Program-made: the position numbers and the translations under genes
The notes under the pieces: generated by a model
What the model was told of the DNA's origin: nothing
Seen by the model: the letters and a program-made list of their open reading frames with translations, nothing else
The model's database searches: none
Shown here: positions 5,487 to 39,584 of the stretch, in pieces
How the letters are laid out: each line of letters starts with the position of its first letter
Position numbering within the stretch: position 1 is the stretch's first letter
DNA from: Escherichia phage HY01
Sequence record: NC_027349.1
DNA: 64,000 nt
Reading direction: 5' to 3' (one strand)

Positions 5487-5566
5487 TTTCACCTCTTAGC
5501 TCAATTCATAGATCTATTATATCATAATATTTGAAGATCTATCTTAAAGCATAGAGGATGAATCAG

Positions 5567-5836
5567 CTATCTAAGTAAACAGTATGCTTGGAATACTTTC
5601 TCCATCATCTTTTTAAATTCATGAATATCTATATAATGACTAGTTAAATCAGCATGATATAAAAAGTCTAAAAACTTTTCATGTGTGCTAACATATTCGC
5701 TTTCATTTAATTCAGAAACATGGCTTTCCCAATATCCAACACCAGTCTTATTTGGGAAAAATGAAATTTTCATGTATTGGTCAACATAGAAAATGCCATA
5801 ATTTTCAATAGTAATAGAAATATTAATAAATTTCAT
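5567..5836 (-). CDS. Hypothetical protein (89 aa)
   Basis: ORF track; ATG overlaps stop of upstream ORF. Confidence 0.5.
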   Translation of the reverse strand: MKFINISITIENYGIFYVDQYMKISFFPNKTGVGYWESHVSELNESEYVSTHEKFLDFLYHADLTSHYIDIHEFKKMMEKVFQAYCLLR

Positions 5837-6377: not shown

Positions 6378-6415
6378 ACATTATCCTCAATTACGTTAAA
6401 ATTTTATTATCCAAA

Positions 6416-6431
6416 AAGGGCCGAAGCCCTT
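6416..6431 (-). terminator. Tetraloop hairpin AAGGGC-CGAA-GCCCTT
   Basis: Same 16-mer as at 2774-2791; lies between ORFs 6430-6630 and 6051-6377. Confidence 0.45.
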
Positions 6432-6630
6432 AGCTAAACTGTTTGGCGCCCTTCCAGCCTTCATACATCATTGCGGCTGATATTAATATTGCTCCTGCGC
6501 ATTTTGAATATTTGTGATTCCAAAACCAGTTCAGAAAAACTTCGTCATCAATACCTTGGGCTATCATATTTTCAAAGAACTGACGACGAGCTTCGGCAAT
6601 TCGTTGCGATAATTTAGATTCAGGATTCAT
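6430..6630 (-). CDS. Hypothetical protein (66 aa)
   Basis: ORF track. Confidence 0.45.
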   Translation of the reverse strand: MNPESKLSQRIAEARRQFFENMIAQGIDDEVFLNWFWNHKYSKCAGAILISAAMMYEGWKGAKQFS

Positions 6631-6846
6631 TTAAATTTTCCAGTTACCATTTTCATTAATGAATTTAATCCAGTCATTTACTGACCACTTGGTCGTATCG
6701 CCTTTTGGAGCAACATTTAAAGTGTATAATCCTTGTTTAAAAAGCATTCGTTTGATATTCATATTTTCCTCAGCTATAACGATAGCACTCGTTTGATTTA
6801 CGCTTAGCAACTCGTTGAGAAGTATTGTAATCAAAATCATCGTCAA
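6631..6846 (-). CDS. Hypothetical protein (71 aa); true start may be an internal Met near 6762
   Basis: ORF track; overlaps upstream ORF by 77 nt if full length. Confidence 0.4.
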   Translation of the reverse strand: MTMILITILLNELLSVNQTSAIVIAEENMNIKRMLFKQGLYTLNVAPKGDTTKWSVNDWIKFINENGNWKI

Positions 6847-7084
6847 TGTAAACTGATTTTTTCAACTTTCTTACTTCACCACGTAATTGACGATTTAACT
6901 CATCTTTAACTTCTGAATCAATGCCTTTCATTCTACGCCATTTATCAGAGCGAAAAATGTTTTCAACCATATCTTTATGACTTACACCATCAGGAGCTTT
7001 ACGCTTTCCGAAATAGTCATAATCACGAACTTTCAAGTCTTTACGACGATACGTTTTACCCATGGAGTTTAATTTCCTTAGCAA
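6770..7084 (-). CDS. Hypothetical basic protein (104 aa)
   Basis: ORF track; Lys/Arg-rich. Confidence 0.45.
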   Translation of the reverse strand: MLRKLNSMGKTYRRKDLKVRDYDYFGKRKAPDGVSHKDMVENIFRSDKWRRMKGIDSEVKDELNRQLRGEVRKLKKSVYIDDDFDYNTSQRVAKRKSNECYRYS

Positions 7085-7268: not shown

Positions 7269-7298
7269 ATAATACCACAGTTTGAACTTGTTGTAAAC
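7269..7298 (-). promoter_or_regulatory. T4-type early promoter (GTTTAC -35, 18-nt spacer, TATTAT -10) with upstream TTTCACAAAGTT element
   Basis: Minus-strand GTTTAC at 7298-7293 and TATTAT at 7274-7269; same extended motif recurs at least 8 times in the window. Confidence 0.5.
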
Positions 7299-7379
7299 AA
7301 CTTTGTGAAAATTATTTTAGGGAATGATAAGAAGGGAACGATAGCTTAGAATGGTAATATACAGAATGTGAGAAAGAAA

Positions 7380-7393
7380 GGCCCAAAGGGCCC
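7380..7393 (-). terminator. Hairpin GGCCC-AAAG-GGCCC
   Basis: Perfect inverted repeat 3' of nrdH. Confidence 0.4.
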
Positions 7394-11472: not shown

Positions 11473-11577
11473 TTAAGTCATTTATCGTAGGTTCATTATA
11501 TACTGTTTCTTCATCAGTGTAAACCGGTTCTTCCGGCTCTGGCTCTACTGTTTCCCATCTAGCCGCCCACCAGGGTT

Positions 11578-15113: not shown

Positions 15114-15143
15114 ATTATACCACATCCTTGTGGCAAAGTAAAC
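15114..15143 (-). promoter_or_regulatory. T4-type early promoter-like element (GTTTAC...TATAAT)
   Basis: Minus-strand GTTTAC at 15143-15138, TATAAT at 15119-15114, 18-nt spacer. Confidence 0.4.
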
Positions 15144-18084: not shown

Positions 18085-18114
18085 ATAGTACCACAGAGGA
18101 ACAGTCTTGTAAAC
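18085..18114 (-). promoter_or_regulatory. T4-type early promoter (GTTTAC -35, TACTAT -10) followed by conserved leader ACAACTATCAACTAC
   Basis: Minus-strand GTTTAC 18114-18109, TACTAT 18090-18085. Confidence 0.55.
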
Positions 18115-18520: not shown

Positions 18521-19501
18521 TTATTTCAGAAGAGTAACCTCAGCAATTTCTTCCCAACCGTTTTTGTCGGTCATAATAAAGTCAGCAAGATAAAGAGCAG
18601 TACGCAGTGAAACATTGCGTAAACGATTAACATTAACTTTCATCCATGATAATGCTTTATAAGTTTCTTCATCAGAAAGACCGCGCTTTTGCATCATGTC
18701 AGTTGAAAGAATAACATCTTCAACCCTGACCATAATTTCTTCATTAGTATGAACACCCAAATCCAAATAAACTGAGCGGGACACTAATGCTTGTAAGTGT
18801 GGAGCAAGTTTAGTACCACGGTCTAATTCGCGGTCAATGTCAACGTTTGTGATAAAAACAATCGTTCCTTTAAATTCAAACTCACGCTCAATGCCTTTTT
18901 CTTCTAAGTAAGAAGATGCAGTGCTCCAGCAGACTTTACGGGTTTCTCCGGTGTCCAGAGCGGCTTTTAGAAGATTAAGAATGTCCATATCAGAGAAAAC
19001 ATCCACATCATCAATCAAAAGGACAGAATTCTCTTCACGATTATTCCAAAGCTGTTCATAAAGACCAATACCAGAGATTTTACCATTAATGCTTTTATAT
19101 TCAATGTATCCAATATCATTTGCTTTATTTAAAGCTTTATCTAAAGAATACGTTTTACCAATACCTGCTGCGCCAGAGATAATTAATGAACGAATATTTC
19201 CATTAATAATACCGTTCGTCATCATTCCCATAACATTAAATCTTTTATTAATGCGGGTTTTCATATCTTCATATGATTCTTTAACTTCTTCAACTTTTAC
19301 ACCATCATATGAAATATCTGATTTGTAAACCCAAACACCGCGACGTTTACCGTCAATTTCAACAAAAACTTTACCATCTCCTTGTGCATCTACCGGAGCA
19401 TTATCTGGGAACCATTCGCCTAAGAGCTCAAAAGTTCCAGAGATTTCTTTACCAAAGTAGATACCCTTATTGATAGTTACAGTTTTCATTTTATTCTCCA
19501 A
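18521..19501 (-). CDS. P-loop NTPase (AAA-like ATPase), 326 aa
   Basis: Walker A SGAAGIGKT and Walker B VLLIDDVD. Confidence 0.7.
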   Translation of the reverse strand: MENKMKTVTINKGIYFGKEISGTFELLGEWFPDNAPVDAQGDGKVFVEIDGKRRGVWVYKSDISYDGVKVEEVKESYEDMKTRINKRFNVMGMMTNGIINGNIRSLIISGAAGIGKTYSLDKALNKANDIGYIEYKSINGKISGIGLYEQLWNNREENSVLLIDDVDVFSDMDILNLLKAALDTGETRKVCWSTASSYLEEKGIEREFEFKGTIVFITNVDIDRELDRGTKLAPHLQALVSRSVYLDLGVHTNEEIMVRVEDVILSTDMMQKRGLSDEETYKALSWMKVNVNRLRNVSLRTALYLADFIMTDKNGWEEIAEVTLLK

Positions 19502-19526
19502 ATCTGTATCAGTAGTTGATAGTTGT

Positions 19527-19556
19527 ATAGTACCATAAAGCTTTATGCTTGTAAAC
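19527..19556 (-). promoter_or_regulatory. T4-type early promoter (GTTTAC / TACTAT)
   Basis: The 32-mer 19504-19536 is identical to 35343-35374. Confidence 0.55.
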
Positions 19557-19584
19557 TGTTTTGTGAAAAAATTTTTGAAATAAA

Positions 19585-19607
19585 AAGGGGCCTTTAGGGC
19601 CCCCTTT
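19585..19607 (-). terminator. GC-rich hairpin (AGGGGCC-TTTA-GGGCCCCCT) with flanking T/A runs
   Basis: Perfect stem; lies just upstream of the early promoter, giving a terminator-then-promoter unit. Confidence 0.5.
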
Positions 19608-19615
19608 GTGTTGAT

Positions 19616-20101
19616 TTATTCCATTTCTACTATATGCATGTTCTTTTTGCTATCAAAATATATGTTTTTAACTATTAACTCAGAATTAATTGGCAGTAAA
19701 AACTCTCTTTCATAATCTACCATACAAAGATTATCATAAAGCTTGTTAAGCTTATCATCGTCAGTTTGGCCAGATTCTTCAATTGCGATTAAATTTTCTA
19801 AAATGTCAATCATGGCAGTCGAATAGTCGAAAACGTTTGCATTTTTTAACACTACTAAAACATTAGTCATATAGCGTTCTGCCGCAAACGTTTCAGCTAT
19901 ATGAGACTCACTGCTAAAGGAAGTTATTCTTTTAAATTTGATTCTCCTATTAACTTCAAACTTATAAGATAGCACTTCCTCTATTGTAAGTCCTCTAAAA
20001 AGTATGTCTTTAATCTCAAGTTTGTCTTTAATGTAATCATTAACACGCTTATGATTAAAATCACTAATTTTGTTGCCAAGGCATTGCATTAAAATATGCA
20101 T
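19616..20101 (-). CDS. Hypothetical protein (161 aa)
   Basis: ORF track. Confidence 0.55.
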   Translation of the reverse strand: MHILMQCLGNKISDFNHKRVNDYIKDKLEIKDILFRGLTIEEVLSYKFEVNRRIKFKRITSFSSESHIAETFAAERYMTNVLVVLKNANVFDYSTAMIDILENLIAIEESGQTDDDKLNKLYDNLCMVDYEREFLLPINSELIVKNIYFDSKKNMHIVEME

Positions 20102-20147
20102 TGTATTCTCCTCAATTTTTAAAGAGCAATTAATTAACTACACATAT

Positions 20148-20177
20148 ATTATAATATGCTTTGTGATAGAAGTAAAC
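20148..20177 (-). promoter_or_regulatory. T4-type early promoter (GTTTAC / TATAAT)
   Basis: Minus-strand GTTTAC 20177-20172, TATAAT 20153-20148; upstream TTTCACAAAGTT element. Confidence 0.5.
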
Positions 20178-20206
20178 AACTTTGTGACGTCATTTTAAAC
20201 AAAAAA

Positions 20207-20225
20207 GGGGAGCCCGAAGGCTCCC
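20207..20225 (-). terminator. Tetraloop hairpin GGGGAGCC-CGAA-GGCTCCC plus T-run
   Basis: Perfect inverted repeat directly 3' of ORF 20229-21242. Confidence 0.5.
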
Positions 20226-20228
20226 TTA

Positions 20229-21242
20229 TCATTTATAATAACTTCGGTGGTTTTCAAGATAAACCCTCTCAAGGAAGTCATCCCAGAAACTCATGTCTAC
20301 TTTTTGCTGCATACCGTTCTTAGAAGCTTCAATGGATGCTGCTTCTACTTGATCGACCACATCTTCCAAAAACTCTTGAACAGTTTTAAATGGGTGTTTA
20401 CCCAGCTTCACGTCGAGAATAAATGGAGCGTCTTGAAGTGGATAAACCAAGTCACCAGTTTTGTAAATTTCCAATAGTTGGAGTCCACCACGACAAGCAT
20501 GACTTAGAGCTTTCCAGTCAATGCCCTCATTCGCTTCAGCCTTACGAGCACGTTCGCCATATTCAGCATCAAGTTTATTCAAAGACTGCTTAAGCTCAAT
20601 AAGAGAAAGTGTTGTCTGATATTTACGACCCAACACGGTATAGAACGTTTGCGGGCCTGTTTTCTCATGGTTATGGAATACCCATTCACAGAACTCGTTT
20701 TCAGGGAGTCTGTGTTTGATATCTTCTACCTTAGTACGACGAAGTCTATCAGGAATTCCTTCTTGATAGTCGACCCACTGGTCAGGGATTTGATTAACTA
20801 CTTTCAATACATCACGTAATGCGGCCAAACGAGAACCCTTGACACCGTATTTAGAAGCTTGCTTGCGGACATATCCTAAATAGGATTTCATGTTAGTTGT
20901 ATAAAACCGTGAACGATTGTCTTGGATAAATTTCCATACATCAGGCAAATCAGATTTAACCACTAGTTCAGGCGGAGTGTGAAGCATATCCAATGCTACA
21001 GTTTCACCATCTGCTGCTAATTTAAAGAAATACTTAAGACTGTACAGTTCATGGTCAATATCATCTTTGGTGTTTTTAGATGATGTGTTGTTAGTGTTTT
21101 TACTCATATGCTCTTTAACATTTCCGATAAGAATATCGCGAGCAGGAGGAACAAAGATTTCTTTAAAATCTACATCAGATTCTGGAGTAGAAGTTCCATA
21201 AAGATGACTACCAAAATAGCTTTTCATTACTGTTTTCATCAT
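20229..21242 (-). CDS. Pol-beta-superfamily nucleotidyltransferase-like protein (337 aa)
   Basis: N-terminal motif YFGSHLYGTSTPESDVDF fits the G[SG]x9-13Dh[DE] NTase signature; remainder has no motif I recognise. Confidence 0.55.
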   Translation of the reverse strand: MMKTVMKSYFGSHLYGTSTPESDVDFKEIFVPPARDILIGNVKEHMSKNTNNTSSKNTKDDIDHELYSLKYFFKLAADGETVALDMLHTPPELVVKSDLPDVWKFIQDNRSRFYTTNMKSYLGYVRKQASKYGVKGSRLAALRDVLKVVNQIPDQWVDYQEGIPDRLRRTKVEDIKHRLPENEFCEWVFHNHEKTGPQTFYTVLGRKYQTTLSLIELKQSLNKLDAEYGERARKAEANEGIDWKALSHACRGGLQLLEIYKTGDLVYPLQDAPFILDVKLGKHPFKTVQEFLEDVVDQVEAASIEASKNGMQQKVDMSFWDDFLERVYLENHRSYYK

Positions 21243-22788: not shown

Positions 22789-22955
22789 AATTACATACTC
22801 CTTTGAATAATATCAATAATGTTGTTCACTAGATTATAAGTAAACATTGGGTAATTATATTGAATCATCACATACACAACAAACAAAACTTTCATTCTCT
22901 TCTCCTTGGCAGTTGGCAAGATTACTATACCATAACCTTGCCAACTTGTAAACCA

Positions 22956-23534: not shown

Positions 23535-23731
23535 GCCATGTGAGTTGCAGCTTCATCACACATATCATAACGTTTCTTAAGAAGTTCTTCAAGTTCTTCA
23601 CTGGTAACTTCATCCATGTCGACGAAAAAATCACCATTAATGATGACGTAGATATTTCCTTCTTGATTAAGTGCTTCAATTTTCATGATGTTCTCCTCTT
23701 TATCCGATGGTTGTATAGTATCACAGCTCAA
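23498..23731 (-). CDS. Hypothetical acidic protein (77 aa)
   Basis: ORF track; preceded by early promoter and RBS. Confidence 0.45.
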
Positions 23732-23744
23732 ATGGAAAGTAAAC
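23715..23744 (-). promoter_or_regulatory. T4-type early promoter (GTTTAC / TACTAT)
   Basis: Minus-strand GTTTAC 23744-23739, TACTAT 23720-23715. Confidence 0.5.
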
Positions 23745-23759
23745 CGGTAAAATGAAAAA

Positions 23760-23777
23760 AGTCTCCCGAAGGAGACT
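23760..23777 (-). terminator. Tetraloop hairpin AGTCTCC-CGAA-GGAGACT plus T-run
   Basis: Perfect inverted repeat 3' of ORF 23782-24168. Confidence 0.5.
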
Positions 23778-27907: not shown

Positions 27908-27937
27908 ATTATACCACAGTCAAGAGGAAAAGTAAAC
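27908..27937 (-). promoter_or_regulatory. T4-type early promoter-like element (GTTTAC / TATAAT) upstream of regB
   Basis: Minus-strand GTTTAC 27937-27932, TATAAT 27913-27908. Confidence 0.45.
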
Positions 27938-30089: not shown

Positions 30090-30563
30090 TTATTTGAATG
30101 ATTTAACGTACTGAATAGAACCTTTACTATTTACAAAGGCAATTTTACCATTTTTATTGTACATAGTAGCAGTACGCTGATAACCATAAGTTTGTTTACC
30201 AGATTGATAACCAACTAATGCGAAATTATCTTCGCCCATTTTATTCTGTTTAGCGCGGATGCGTTCATGACCGTGTGCCATAAGAACCTTAGCATCACCA
30301 GTTGAAATTGATCTACGAGTTTTTTCATCTTCAACTGTATTAACAAAGTCGTCAAATGAATCAAATTTAGCATGGGATTTATTATACAGTTTTCCATCTA
30401 CTGCATAATTATATCCCTGTACATCCATCTCAACTTCTGTACCATCATCCAATACAGCAGTGATTTTTTGACCTTTTTTAAATTTCAAAAGATCAGTAAA
30501 AGATTCAGCAATAATTTGAGAATTAATAGCTGCTTCAGTGATAAATTCTTGATATGTTTTCAT
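30090..30563 (-). CDS. Internal-protein-like capsid-targeted protein (157 aa)
   Basis: N-terminal capsid-targeting sequence MKTYQEFITEAAINSQIIAE with prohead-protease-type L/I-x-E sites. Confidence 0.65.
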   Translation of the reverse strand: MKTYQEFITEAAINSQIIAESFTDLLKFKKGQKITAVLDDGTEVEMDVQGYNYAVDGKLYNKSHAKFDSFDDFVNTVEDEKTRRSISTGDAKVLMAHGHERIRAKQNKMGEDNFALVGYQSGKQTYGYQRTATMYNKNGKIAFVNSKGSIQYVKSFK

Positions 30564-30572
30564 ATGTTTCCT

Positions 30573-30989
30573 TTAAATGTAAATATTTTTGCCGTAATAC
30601 TTGTACCAGTGTGGCTTCATTAAAATTTTTTTATCGAGTCGTTGTTGACTCAATTTAATAGCTGATTTGCATGGATTATAATCATTTTTCCATTCTGCTG
30701 GAATATCGCTGATGTCAGGAACTTCAGTATCTTTTATACTAAACCCACGTTTTAAGCATTCCATTATAATGTCTGATTGACGCTTTCGCAAAAATTCTAA
30801 CTTGTCGTAAAAGAACGTAACATGACCAGAACCTAAAATAAACTCGGAAGATATTTTAAAATCTTTAACCCGCTTACCATTTGCCACGTGTTTACGAACT
30901 ATACCAAAAACGCGTGGCAATTCACGGTATTCTGCGATTAAATGTTGATCAGCAAGTTCAGATACTAAAGTCAAATTAATACGAGTCAT
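30573..30989 (-). CDS. denV: Endonuclease V (pyrimidine-dimer DNA glycosylase)
   Basis: 138 aa; [17 protein letters not shown]...WYKYYGK matches T4 endo V. Confidence 0.93.
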
Positions 30990-31012: not shown

Positions 31013-31044
31013 ATATACTATCACAATTCTAGGAGAAAGTAAAC
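31013..31044 (-). promoter_or_regulatory. T4-type early promoter-like element upstream of denV
   Basis: Minus-strand GTTTAC 31044-31039 with AT-rich -10. Confidence 0.4.
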
Positions 31045-33809: not shown

Positions 33810-33828
33810 TCCTATTTACTCCAAGTAT

Positions 33829-33846
33829 AAGGGGCCGAAGCCCCTT
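33829..33846 (-). terminator. Tetraloop hairpin AAGGGGC-CGAA-GCCCCTT
   Basis: Perfect inverted repeat between ORFs 33851-34444 and 33195-33809. Confidence 0.5.
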
Positions 33847-33850
33847 ATCA

Positions 33851-34444: not shown

Positions 34445-34487
34445 AGTATTTCCTTAGGTTGATTAAAAATTAAAATCTATGGAAGAA

Positions 34488-35003
34488 TTATATCATGCTA
34501 TTTAAGAGATGTAAACTATTTTTAATTTTACAAATTCGTTCAGCTTCTTCAACAGCGGCGATAATGCTTTTAGCTATAGGAGTACTAATACTAGTAGCTT
34601 TTACACTTAACACGATTTCTTTATCTTTACCAGGCCAACCCCACGATTTTTCACCGTGAGTGCCTTTAATTACAGCAGACACCTCAAGTGAGCATCCATT
34701 ATCATATGTTTTTACATTGACAACCCAAGGTTCACTTTTCTCAATCGGTTTATCCCAGTAAATATTAAGAATACGTGGGACATCAAATTTGGCAGGACAA
34801 ATCTTAACCGTAAGACCTTCGCTTTCTAGCCAATTAATAAGAGGGCGTTCATACAGGCGACGATGTGGGCTTGGGATTCGACAAGCCTTATGTCCGTTGC
34901 TTGCGGCTTCACTAAGCTGTTCTAATACCTGCTTTTGCATTATTGATAAGATACCATCAAAAGATTTTTCGGAAGTTTCATTCAGTTCGGTATAAAGAGA
35001 CAT
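34488..35003 (-). CDS. Hypothetical protein (171 aa)
   Basis: ORF track. Confidence 0.55.
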   Translation of the reverse strand: MSLYTELNETSEKSFDGILSIMQKQVLEQLSEAASNGHKACRIPSPHRRLYERPLINWLESEGLTVKICPAKFDVPRILNIYWDKPIEKSEPWVVNVKTYDNGCSLEVSAVIKGTHGEKSWGWPGKDKEIVLSVKATSISTPIAKSIIAAVEEAERICKIKNSLHLLNSMI

Positions 35004-35058
35004 AACAGTTTCCTCAAATTATAGGCTCATAATATCTCAATCATGAGCCTATGTAAAC

Positions 35059-35334: not shown

Positions 35335-35365
35335 GTTGTTTTCTGTATCAGTAGTTGATAGTTGT

Positions 35366-35395
35366 ATAGTACCATGGAAAAACGGGGATGTAAAC
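35366..35395 (-). promoter_or_regulatory. T4-type early promoter (GTTTAC / TACTAT)
   Basis: 32-mer 35343-35374 identical to 19504-19536. Confidence 0.55.
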
Positions 35396-35530
35396 AGTTT
35401 TGTGAAAAATTTTTTAAAAAGTTTTAGGGAATTCTAGGGTGGGAAGGGGCAATTAAAGGATAGGATAATATATTATAAAGGGTAGAAACTAAATGGTGCC
35501 TAGAGAGGTCCAGAAAGGTCTAGATACCAA

Positions 35531-35560
35531 AAAGCCCCAACCTTTTGGTCGGGGCTAAAA
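35531..35560 (-). terminator. Rho-independent terminator hairpin (GCCCCGACC-AAAA-GGTTGGGGC) plus U-run
   Basis: Near-identical copy of the hairpin at 36090-36117; 3' of the ip-like gene. Confidence 0.55.
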
Positions 35561-35562
35561 TG

Positions 35563-36036
35563 TTATTTGATTTGTTTAGCAGACCAAATGCGGTCTTTAA
35601 TAATTTTTTGGATGTCTTCAACATACTCAAGAGAGTGAGCATGTGGATTATCTTTGAAACTATAAGCGCGGGCTAACTTTTGGCCTTCGGTTTTGATTAC
35701 TAAAAGCTCTTTAAGGATAGCTTCATATTTAGCGATAATTCCTTTAACGATATTTTTTTCTTGTGCAGCTTTAGGATCTGCTTTAGGAGCAGGTTTACCT
35801 GAAGCCTTTGCAAAAGCAGCGCCAGTAGCAACTAAACTTTTCCAGGCCATACTAACTGCATTTCCCGTAAATCCTTCTGCTTTCATGTCGCGAGCAAACT
35901 GGAATCGTGATTCGTCAGAAGCATCTTTATAGGAATATTTACCCGCTGCAATGGCTGCTTTTGCGACAGCTTGAATTTCGGTGCTAGATGCTTCATTTAA
36001 CACCGCTTCATTTAAAAATTGAGCATATGATTTCAT
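35563..36036 (-). CDS. Internal-protein-like capsid-targeted protein (157 aa)
   Basis: N-terminal MKSYAQFLNEAVLNEASSTE with L-x-E protease-type sites, resembling IP capsid-targeting sequences. Confidence 0.6.
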   Translation of the reverse strand: MKSYAQFLNEAVLNEASSTEIQAVAKAAIAAGKYSYKDASDESRFQFARDMKAEGFTGNAVSMAWKSLVATGAAFAKASGKPAPKADPKAAQEKNIVKGIIAKYEAILKELLVIKTEGQKLARAYSFKDNPHAHSLEYVEDIQKIIKDRIWSAKQIK

Positions 36037-36076: not shown

Positions 36077-36084
36077 TATTTATA
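36077..36084 (-). promoter_or_regulatory. Late-promoter box TATAAATA upstream of the ip-like gene
   Basis: Plus-strand tatttata at 36077-36084, about 40 nt upstream of the ATG at 36036. Confidence 0.4.
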
Positions 36085-36089
36085 CTAAA

Positions 36090-36117
36090 AAGCCCCAACC
36101 TTTCGGTCGGGGCTAAG
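36090..36117 (-). terminator. Rho-independent terminator hairpin (GCCCCGACC-GAAA-GGTTGGGGC) plus U5
   Basis: Strong GC stem followed by TTTTT on the minus strand; ends the small-RNA/tRNA transcription unit. Confidence 0.55.
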
Positions 36118-37295: not shown

Positions 37296-37946
37296 TTATA
37301 TATTGTTAATTTGATTTAGAATTCTTTTTGCTTGAGTATGACTTACGCCAATATGCTTAGCATATTTAGATAATTCACCACGCTTAGAAAAATCATATAA
37401 TTTAGAAATTTCTATTCTTCTTTTTCTTTCATCCGCAGAAACTTTTGCTTCGTTTGCTTTTGCTATTTTACGTTTAGCTTCTTGAGAATGAGTTTTACCA
37501 GCAAAGCCATTCTTCATTAATCCATTTGAAGACCATCCTTTTAATTTTCCGTTAGAATGTGCCTTTTTAACACCCAATGAAATTAATTCGCGTTGCTGAT
37601 CTGTCATAGGATAATTATTTATATGGTCCCATCCACCTTCACCTCCAAGTTTTAAATTATACACATCTGGTCTATTTAAAAACTCTTCTGTGACAATATT
37701 TTTCTCGGCTTCAAGCATAGATTCTTTATCATCAAAATACTCTAATATTTCTTTAGAAAAATTTTCTATACCATATTTATCTTGGGCTCTTTTTAATAAT
37801 TTACCAGAACCCATATATCCATCATCTAAATTTTCGGTAGAATGCACACCAATATAAATTTTATTATTAATTTTATTTGTTATTTTATAAAGATAAAAAT
37901 GCATATCAGTCCCTAATAAAGAACTGAGCGTCTCACGACGAGTCAT
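37296..37946 (-). CDS. segB: GIY-YIG homing endonuclease SegB-like
   Basis: 216 aa; GIY-YIG module YLYKITNKINNKIYIGVHS...GYMGSG; embedded in the tRNA cluster, as reported for T4 segB. Confidence 0.8.
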   Translation of the reverse strand: MTRRETLSSLLGTDMHFYLYKITNKINNKIYIGVHSTENLDDGYMGSGKLLKRAQDKYGIENFSKEILEYFDDKESMLEAEKNIVTEEFLNRPDVYNLKLGGEGGWDHINNYPMTDQQRELISLGVKKAHSNGKLKGWSSNGLMKNGFAGKTHSQEAKRKIAKANEAKVSADERKRRIEISKLYDFSKRGELSKYAKHIGVSHTQAKRILNQINNI

Positions 37947-39176: not shown

Positions 39177-39206
39177 ATAGTATCACTACTAAAACCCTGT
39201 GTAAAC
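39177..39206 (-). promoter_or_regulatory. T4-type early promoter (GTTTAC / TACTAT)
   Basis: Minus-strand GTTTAC 39206-39201, TACTAT 39182-39177, conserved leader and upstream element. Confidence 0.5.
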
Positions 39207-39224
39207 AACTTTGTGAAATATTTA

Positions 39225-39512
39225 TTACAAAAGATTTTTAGCAATAATCTTGAGATGTGCCGCAGAAATGTGTTTAGCTTTAAACAACGCAGTTTCTTCA
39301 GCAGGAGAGATAATGATTGTAGCACCATCCTTTTTAGCAGACCACCCATCACCTAGGTAAACAGTACCTTTGATTTCTTCGCCATCAACCAAGCTAATCA
39401 TTGGTTTACCTTCTCGTCCTTTATTTGCTTTAATAACTTCAGAAGTAAGAGTAGCTTCGGTAATGGTAGAAACCGGGGTAGTTGTAGAAGTAAACTCTTT
39501 GAAAGTTTTCAT
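39225..39512 (-). CDS. ipI: Internal protein I-like capsid-targeted protein
   Basis: 95 aa (length of T4 IPI precursor); N-terminal capsid-targeting sequence MKTFKEFTSTTTPVSTITEATLTSE with L/I-x-E sites; position upstream of 57B. Confidence 0.7.
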   Translation of the reverse strand: MKTFKEFTSTTTPVSTITEATLTSEVIKANKGREGKPMISLVDGEEIKGTVYLGDGWSAKKDGATIIISPAEETALFKAKHISAAHLKIIAKNLL

Positions 39513-39542: not shown

Positions 39543-39572
39543 ATAGTATCACTACCTCATCAGCATGTAAAC
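39543..39572 (-). promoter_or_regulatory. T4-type early promoter upstream of ipI
   Basis: Minus-strand GTTTAC 39572-39567, TACTAT 39548-39543. Confidence 0.5.
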
Positions 39573-39584
39573 AACTTTGTGAAA

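Follow-up and report, generated by a model that had tools for sequence, protein, structure and literature searches.

The early promoters of bacteriophage T4 are known to combine UP, -35, TGn and -10 elements with extra consensus positions (Hinton 2010, PMC2988021), with GTTTAC occupying positions -36 to -31 (Nolan et al. 2006, PMC1524935), and are stimulated by Alt-mediated ADP-ribosylation of the polymerase alpha subunit (PMC2988021). The use of dRNA-seq in T4 recovers the early motif TGTG(A/G)TA(C/T)(A/T)AT (bioRxiv 10.1101/2024.04.04.588121; GSE255091). Promoter-early stem-loops (PeSLs) and the modular shuffling associated with them were described in RB49 and phi1 (Arbiol et al. 2010, PMC2839356), where recombination between flanking PeSLs yielded mini-circles, detected by inverse PCR, with crossovers inside the units (PMC2839356). 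The concept was subsequently extended to T4/PST, with the consensus TTTACW-N17-TAYWAT (Comeau, Arbiol & Krisch 2014, PMC4122927), and polymorphism of the T-even internal-protein (IP) locus is credited to Repoila et al. 1994, as cited in PMC4122927 and PMC2839356. Against this background, the view that recurring terminator and early-promoter units bound exchangeable genes in Escherichia phage HY01 is sound in its essentials and not new: the early promoters of T4 are standard textbook material, PeSL shuffling dates from 2010 and its T4/PST version from 2014, and several of these very promoters, terminators and flanking repeats appear in the existing annotations of T4 and RB32. What is added here is a clear allelic series at one slot, together with a caution on the meaning of single units.

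The window analysed was a 64-kb stretch of the HY01 genome (NC_027349.1). By sequence comparison, the 6-kb stretch around the focal locus matched Escherichia phage PEC04 at 100% identity and T2 and many relatives at 94-97%, and the window is identified on such comparisons as that of a Tequatrovirus, a T2/T4-like coliphage. Its GC content is about 35%, and the genes up to ~43 kb lie on the minus strand in T4 early-gene order (55, nrdH/G/D, 49, pin, nrdC to nrdC.11, mobD.x, rI, tk, vs, regB, denV, e, the tRNAs, an Ip gene, 57B/57A, 1, 3, 2 and 4), followed after ~43 kb by plus-strand late baseplate genes. The linear PEC04 GenBank record begins inside the tRNA cluster, at window position ~37294, and the window spans the arbitrary ends of that record, which is consistent with a circularly permuted genome or a differing record origin. 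An Rfam search of the window matched only nine tRNAs and no family for the leader or the hairpins discussed below; the tRNA set (Arg, Asn, Tyr, Met, Thr, Ser, Gly, Leu and Gln) differs from that of T4. The cluster is split between tRNA-Ser and tRNA-Gly by a 216-aa ORF (37296-37946, minus strand) that is missing in T2 and several other loci (a 655-bp gap) and is 98.5% identical to T4 segB over 37616-37890; it is probably a segB-like homing endonuclease.

All eight of the minus-strand early promoters that a sequence-only reading had proposed (low ends of the -10 hexamers at 7269, 18085, 19527, 20148, 23715, 35366, 39177 and 39543) were found in place, each consisting of GTTTAC, 18 nt and TAYWAT, mostly with TGn. 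The combination of GTTTAC and a TAYWAT -10, with a 17-bp spacing from TTTAC(A) to the -10, occurred at 15 minus-strand sites, one of which (41050) is counted as possible, and at least seven units had gone unnoticed in that reading (-35 G at 15143, 22953, 27937, 31044, 34516, 35058 and possibly 41050). Most units carry the extended -10 (TG), the region from -40 to -60 is A/T-rich, and all lie on the coding strand, with a Shine-Dalgarno (SD) sequence and ATG 25-46 nt past the -10. The 18-mer TTTCACAAAGTTGTTTAC was matched six times at ≤3 mismatches (0.2 expected) and the composite pattern GTTTAC-N14-20-TAYNATACAAC four times (0 expected), and an unbiased repeat search of the whole 64 kb returned the units as the largest direct-repeat families (D1, D2, D3, D6 and D16). 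A generic sigma-70 scan of the AT-rich window was not above chance (98 found vs 87 expected), and a loose GTTTAC-type scan came close to the shuffled expectation (65 matches vs 53); it is only the T4-specific pattern, not the generic sigma-70 pattern, that is above chance in the window. In a search of 2.9 million viral contigs, the exact 18-mer was confined to 19 stretches, all in T4-like contigs.

An extended consensus common to all eight sites, as initially supposed, was not seen. The units instead form a mosaic, the TTTCACAAAG block being missing at 18085 and 23715 and the ACAACTATCAACTAC leader being complete only at 18085, 19527 and 35366, partial at 39177 and 23715, and absent at 7269, 20148 and 39543. 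Across the 15 units, the TCACAAA upstream block was present in six, a TATCAAC-type leader in five and an adjacent hairpin in three. In a sequence logo of 196 distinct units taken from distant T4-like loci, C-rich positions and CTAT appeared around +1, and part of the 'leader' (CCTAT near +1) is therefore a general promoter feature even in distant T4-like phages. The TCACAAA block and the full TATCAACTAC leader were found only in minorities, which is consistent with paralogous copying. Inspection by eye led to rejection of the TCACA of the upstream block as a CRP half-site, there being no TGTGA half-site at the right spacing. The pyrimidine-rich spacers at 7299-7370 and 35396-35530 (minus strand), which lie between a terminator hairpin and the upstream block of a promoter, have ATTCCCTAAAA in common about 15-25 nt upstream of the -35. 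Two near-perfect matches to TTTACA-17-TATAAT/TACAAT were also observed in or beside coding sequence at 11495-11524 and 6824-6853 (minus strand), in the 49.1/pin region (intergenic in the PEC04 annotation) and in gene 55.5, respectively; both are retained in T4, T2 and RB32, and may represent internal promoters or codons conserved by coincidence.

By motif and position, the units are identified as T4-type sigma-70-dependent immediate-early promoters. They occur at the same positions in T4, T2 and RB32, and the T4 record U76612.1 carries -35/-10 annotations for five orthologous sites, of which two are unnamed and three bear the names early promoter 50.0, 54.4 and 57.9; terminators are annotated at two of the five. 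The ortholog of early promoter 50.0, found by motif scan and supported by the T4 annotation, precedes nrdC.4 (15114..15143, minus strand, as are all units given here), and that of early promoter 57.9, annotated in T4 with its terminator, is a strict PeSL upstream of mobD.5 (23715..23777; UUCG hairpin at 23760-23777, -35 at 23739-23744, -10 at 23715-23720). The promoter of nrdC.8 (18085..18114) has the full leader and neither hairpin nor TCACAAA block, and the unit at 7269..7310, found by motif search, has the exact 18-mer upstream/-35 block. Motif scanning further placed promoters at the orthologous positions upstream of mobD.2 (22924..22953) and regB (27908..27937), and upstream of denV (31015..31044), alongside which ipII and ipIII are inserted in T4.

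Hairpins had been said to precede several of the units. They do exist, and are predicted to be terminators, being stable (-10.8 to -20.3 kcal/mol, RNAfold) and followed by U-runs, but they adjoin only three of the 15 units (-35 G at 19556, 20177 and 23744), with gaps of 16-31 nt. Hairpins lie at a distance from two more, about 80 nt upstream of the unit at 7298 (7379-7393) and 137 nt upstream of that at 35395, and the other ten have no upstream hairpin. UUCG tetraloops were found in the hairpins at 20208-20225 and 23760-23777, 15-31 nt from the -35; that at 19585-19603 has a loop of 3-5 nt. The distant hairpin at 35533-35556 has a duplicate at 36091-36114. A second family of near-identical hairpins, GGGCC-GAAG-GGCCC (D11), was noted at 2773-2793, 6414-6434 and 33828-33848; these are palindromic enough to serve either strand, and one lies at the e.5/e.6 junction. 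The three strict hairpin-promoter composites support the likeness to promoter-early stem-loop cassettes that had been drawn.

Two of these three composites flank the slot between nrdC.11 and nrdC.10, all features of which are on the minus strand. Upstream of the slot lies the conserved gene nrdC.11 (20229..21242), which by domain match encodes an RlaP-type nucleotidyltransferase. It is followed by a predicted terminator hairpin, part of PeSL A (20208..20225; GGGAGCC-UUCG-GGCUCCC and a U-run; RNAfold -15.1 kcal/mol), whose ortholog is annotated as 'terminator' in T4 U76612.1, and then by the early promoter of the cassette gene (20148..20199), with its upstream block at 20178-20199, -35 GTTTAC at 20172-20177, -10 TATAAT at 20148-20153 and a predicted start near 20141. 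The cassette payload (19616..20101) is a 161-aa Alt/Mod-family ADP-ribosylase-like protein (PEC04_0038) that matched PHROG 832, 'RNA polymerase ADP-ribosylase' (E=2e-23), and no Pfam or NCBIfam family; its homologous gene in T2, ACG-C40 and Moon is preceded by the same promoter. Behind it stands the predicted terminator hairpin of PeSL B (19585..19603; GGGGCC-loop-GGCCCC and a U-run; -16.5 kcal/mol), followed by the early promoter of nrdC.10 (19490..19584), the ortholog of T4 early promoter 54.4, with upstream block TTTTTCACAAAACA, -35 at 19551-19556, -10 TACTAT at 19527-19532, leader ACAACTATCAACTACTGATACAG and SD GGAG. Downstream, nrdC.10 itself (18521..19489) was recognised as conserved from gene order and comparison. 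The AAA/STAND-NTPase Pfam matches of NrdC.10 were weak and all below threshold, and proteins of the NrdC.10 region are named inconsistently in related NCBI records (thioredoxin, ADP-ribosylase).

The proposal that this pair of units brackets an exchangeable cassette was borne out by the alleles of related phages. Most of the 901-bp focal stretch was present in 38 of 522 matching phage records. T4, RB3 and RB32 lack the cassette and have in its place a single unit, formed by the nrdC.11 hairpin and the nrdC.10 promoter, the slot measuring 114 bp in T4 (one chimeric unit) as against 739 bp in the window. D5505 carries a different two-ORF cassette, ACG-C40 carries both cassettes in tandem, and Moon has the ADP-ribosylase gene with two other ORFs. 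Homology between the alleles breaks inside the repeated unit, within the common TTTTTATTTCAAAAATTTTTCACAAAnnGTTTAC block and after ACAACTATCAA in the leader, and the alignments on either side of the indel share 39 nt, corresponding to the repeat. Across 34 T4-like IMG/VR loci together with the window and T4, with NrdC.10 identity ranging from 100% down to 61%, the slot varied from 108 to 2277 bp and its contents comprised 44 ORF clusters, about 20 of them recurrent, in varied order and with hairpins and promoters between them. On the basis of this survey, the nrdC.11-nrdC.10 slot is regarded as a cleanly resolved combinatorial cassette hotspot.

Exchange within the units was also indicated by the leader of nrdC.10. 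A 32-mer at 19504-19536 had been reported as identical to 35343-35374 ahead of unrelated genes; the identity is exact, but its true span is 33 nt (35343-35375), and comparison of the two downstream proteins confirmed that they are unrelated. The second copy belongs to the early promoter of e.8 (35343..35407, minus strand, with upstream block), the -10-to-leader segment of which is 33/33 identical to 19504-19536. Two types of nrdC.10 leader were distinguished, type A (...CAACTGATACGG) in T4, T2, RB32 and two IMG/VR loci (L008 and L010), and type B (...CAACTACTGATACAG) in the window and RB3, type B being identical to the e.8 leader in all genomes examined. The 33-nt identity is explained by this match of the nrdC.10 leader here to that of e.8, for which gene conversion from the e.8 unit would be the simplest reading, although the dimorphism could be an ancestral polymorphism rather than a conversion. 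Every pairing of cassette state with leader type is represented (PEC04 +/B, T2 +/A, RB3 -/B and T4 -/A), a four-gamete pattern that is taken as the signature of recombination, or of recurrent change, within ~60 nt. Chimeric spacer/leader combinations were likewise found among the units.

Indel edges within units, together with a chimeric unit in the empty allele, were found at the nrdC.10/11 slot, the internal-protein locus and the e.7 swap. At the internal-protein locus, a 95-aa internal virion protein gene (39225..39512, minus strand, phrog_4363) lies between two minus-strand early promoters, one upstream of it (39543..39584, family D6), whose upstream block and -35 are identical to 39201-39218, and one recognised by its motif upstream of trna.4 (39177..39218), where extra Ip genes are inserted in T2 and RB32. 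The two units have a 20-nt exact core in common. There is one Ip gene in the window as against two in T2 and three in RB32, where the 95-aa gene is replaced or multiplied; the extra genes are flanked by a 43-47 bp unit repeat (noted in the RB32 annotation as a '43 bp direct repeat'), and the alignment flanks at this locus overlap by 47 nt. In the e.7 swap, a 171-aa gene (34488..35003, minus strand) is exchanged against T4 e.7 (annotation note 'replaces e.7'), and the swap lies between the promoters with -35 G at 35058 and 34516, which motif scanning placed upstream of the 171-aa gene (35029..35058, minus strand) and of e.6 (34487..34516, minus strand).

A repeat consisting of a hairpin only was found around a further gene. 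Two 35-nt copies on the minus strand, 94% identical to each other (repeat family D12), lie at 35524..35558 (AGCCCCGACC-AAAA-GGUUGGGGCU; RNAfold -20.0 kcal/mol) and 36082..36116 and bracket the ORF 35563-36036 (157 aa, phrog_2280), with no promoter in the repeat. In T4 and T2 the ORF is missing and the hairpin is present once, the RB32 annotation notes that the ORF is 'flanked by 34 bp imperfect direct repeat', and at that same hairpin two IMG/VR loci (L045 and L076) contain a different insert of ~640 bp. Separately, denV (30573-30989) is ~76% identical to T4 with flanks that are >91% identical, and would therefore represent a replaced mosaic segment; beside it lies an IpIV-like internal virion protein gene (30090-30563, phrog_3155), in contrast to T4, in which ipII and ipIII lie on the other side of denV. 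An additional 89-aa gene between gene 55 and 55.1 (5566-5821), missing in T4, T2 and RB32, has edges that coincide with no promoter unit.

It had been further proposed that the units in general mark individually exchangeable accessory genes and are enriched at their boundaries. Sixty unique indel or replacement breakpoints were collected for window positions 5-43 kb against T4, T2, RB32 and seven partial same-genus loci, so that the statistics rest on three full and seven partial genomes. Twelve of the 60 fell inside unit spans, against 3.2 expected at random positions. Breakpoints, however, generally lie at gene junctions, and relative to other junctions the units were not enriched, a breakpoint being present at 9/15 unit junctions and 27/65 others (P=0.16) and, for intergenic gaps of ≥40 nt, in 9/14 with a unit and 9/15 without. 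Variable genes were likewise not significantly more frequent behind a unit (5/15 vs 15/64 without one, P=0.31), and in 73 diverse T4-like loci the conservation of unit-driven ORFs was no lower than that of the ORFs around them, with a median prevalence of 0.32 against 0.27 in one set and 0.35 against 0.35 in a second. Most units drive conserved genes, namely nrdC.4, nrdC.8, nrdC.10, regB, e.6 and e.8. The general rule is therefore not supported by junctions, variability or prevalence, and only a narrower form is: genes bracketed by two units were variable in 3/4 cases as against 17/75 of the rest (P=0.048). What predicts an accessory gene is bracketing by a pair of units, not the presence of one.

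Homing-endonuclease or intron events (mobB, mobC, I-TevII, mobD, segB and seg-like) or 9-nt start-site microhomology account for many or most of the indels in the window. The e.2 deletion (32046|32502) and a deletion in locus L010 (21252|23120) were considered as unit-mediated events and rejected, their flanks sharing only 9 nt at RBS/start sites.

We consider it highly probable that the units are early promoters, whether or not a terminator hairpin precedes them, and that they also serve as patches of homology through which cassettes are exchanged. As 'uber' promoters with an A/T-rich UP element, GTTTAC at -36 to -31, TGn, TAYWAT and a C-rich/CTAT start region, they would capture host RNA polymerase within seconds of infection, and transcription in HY01 would be expected to start at them. 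An intrinsic terminator hairpin, where the upstream gene ends in one, would, with the promoter, constitute the PeSL and insulate successive early transcription units. Because they are 40-70 nt long and very similar, the units may in addition act as dispersed homology patches for the very active recombination of the phage. Crossover between directly oriented units would delete the intervening gene, with a single chimeric unit remaining; a self-sufficient promoter-gene-terminator cassette would be inserted or swapped by the opposite reaction, or by two crossovers with a co-infecting phage of related type. Against this step, the repeats concerned, at 39-47 imperfect nt, are at the lower limit reported for T4 homologous recombination.

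The main alternative is that the units are promoters and terminators and nothing else, their similarity reflecting selection for maximal polymerase binding, the coincidence with indel edges reflecting purifying selection, under which an insertion is viable only if it brings its own promoter and terminator and lands between transcription units (as in the 'moron' model), and the breakpoints arising by illegitimate or microhomology recombination anywhere. The lack of breakpoint enrichment at unit junctions over other junctions and the comparable conservation of unit-driven ORFs are in keeping with it, and mean that the association could reflect tolerance of insertion rather than initiation of recombination; the 9-nt microhomology at other indels and the presence of CCTAT near +1 even in distant T4-like phages point the same way. 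It does not readily account, however, for empty alleles that hold exactly one chimeric repeat, with flanks overlapping by 35-54 nt, as seen at the hairpin pair of 35.5-36.1 kb, at the internal-protein locus and at the nrdC.10/11 slot, a pattern read as the signature of recombination between repeats. Also against it are the chimeric spacer/leader units, the four-gamete pattern within ~60 nt, a 33-nt identity that reaches well beyond the polymerase contact region, and the RB49 mini-circles, which have their crossovers inside PeSLs (PMC2839356). Confinement to promoter and terminator function is thus considered possible but rather unlikely.

A bolder form of the preferred homology-patch reading would make the units measurable, concerted-evolving recombination hotspots, with frequent ectopic conversion between sites 16 kb apart (the nrdC.10 leader having been converted to that of e.8), crossovers within ~60 nt and possibly a structure-specific factor acting on the hairpin or TCACAAA block; this is thought improbable. 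Were it true, PeSL cassettes would form a class of mobile elements resembling integron cassettes, without an integrase. We find it very improbable that the units are targets of a dedicated nuclease or recombinase recognising the GC hairpin or the TCACAAA block, with the cassettes as true mobile elements. Such an activity was raised for the GGGG...CCCC stem by Arbiol et al. in 2010 (PMC2839356) and would suit the hairpin-only repeat around the ORF at 35563-36036, the other cassettes found at the same hairpin and the confinement of the exact 18-mer block to T4-like contigs, but crossovers do not share one site and occur in the upstream/-35 block, in the -10 region and in the leader, hairpin sequences vary among units, and neither the TCACAAA block (6/15) nor an adjacent hairpin (3/15) is general. 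The cassettes, moreover, have no linked candidate recombinase, and T4 general recombination would be sufficient in principle. Finally, the notion of functionless chance or low-complexity matches in AT-rich DNA, which fits the generic sigma-70 and loose GTTTAC counts, is refuted by the enrichment of the 18-mer and composite patterns far above expectation, by the placement of all units on the coding strand 25-46 nt before start codons, and by their retention at orthologous T4, T2 and RB32 positions with annotation as promoters in T4, and its probability is considered negligible. The nrdC.11-nrdC.10 slot carries candidates for host takeover or anti-defence, such as the ADP-ribosylase-like gene.

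Compared with the T4 early promoters, the units have the same architecture and the same orthologous positions, and the downstream genes in common include nrdC.4, nrdC.8, nrdC.10, mobD.2, mobD.5, regB, e.8 and ipI/trna.4. The HY01 window differs in having an extra promoter and ADP-ribosylase-like gene in the nrdC.10/11 slot and another nrdC.10 leader allele, and promoter activity here is predicted from sequence. As in the T-even IP locus, the interval from 57B to trna.4 is subject to gain, loss and replacement of Ip genes, which have early promoters of their own and direct-repeat flanks; there is no difference of substance, the window representing one particular Ip allele (95 aa).

With the PeSLs, the window units share their anatomy (terminator stem-loop, AT-rich region, sigma-70-like early promoter and SD/ATG), their setting in hyperplastic early regions, the fit to the T4/PST consensus TTTACW-N17-TAYWAT, and the deletion, insertion or swapping among close relatives of single ORFs between two units, with one chimeric unit as the outcome. 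They differ in that an adjacent stem-loop accompanies only three of the 15 window promoters, in that indel edges showed no preference for them over other gene junctions, and in that the cassette at 35563-36036 has hairpin-only repeats with no promoter; the mini-circles on record are those of RB49/phi1. The morons of lambdoid phages and mycobacteriophages are autonomous promoter-gene-terminator units between conserved genes, usually expressed from the prophage and not known to be flanked by a genome-wide family of near-identical regulatory repeats. The HY01 cassettes resemble them as autonomous promoter-gene-terminator units inserted among conserved genes, and differ from them in that the flanking signals themselves would supply the homology.
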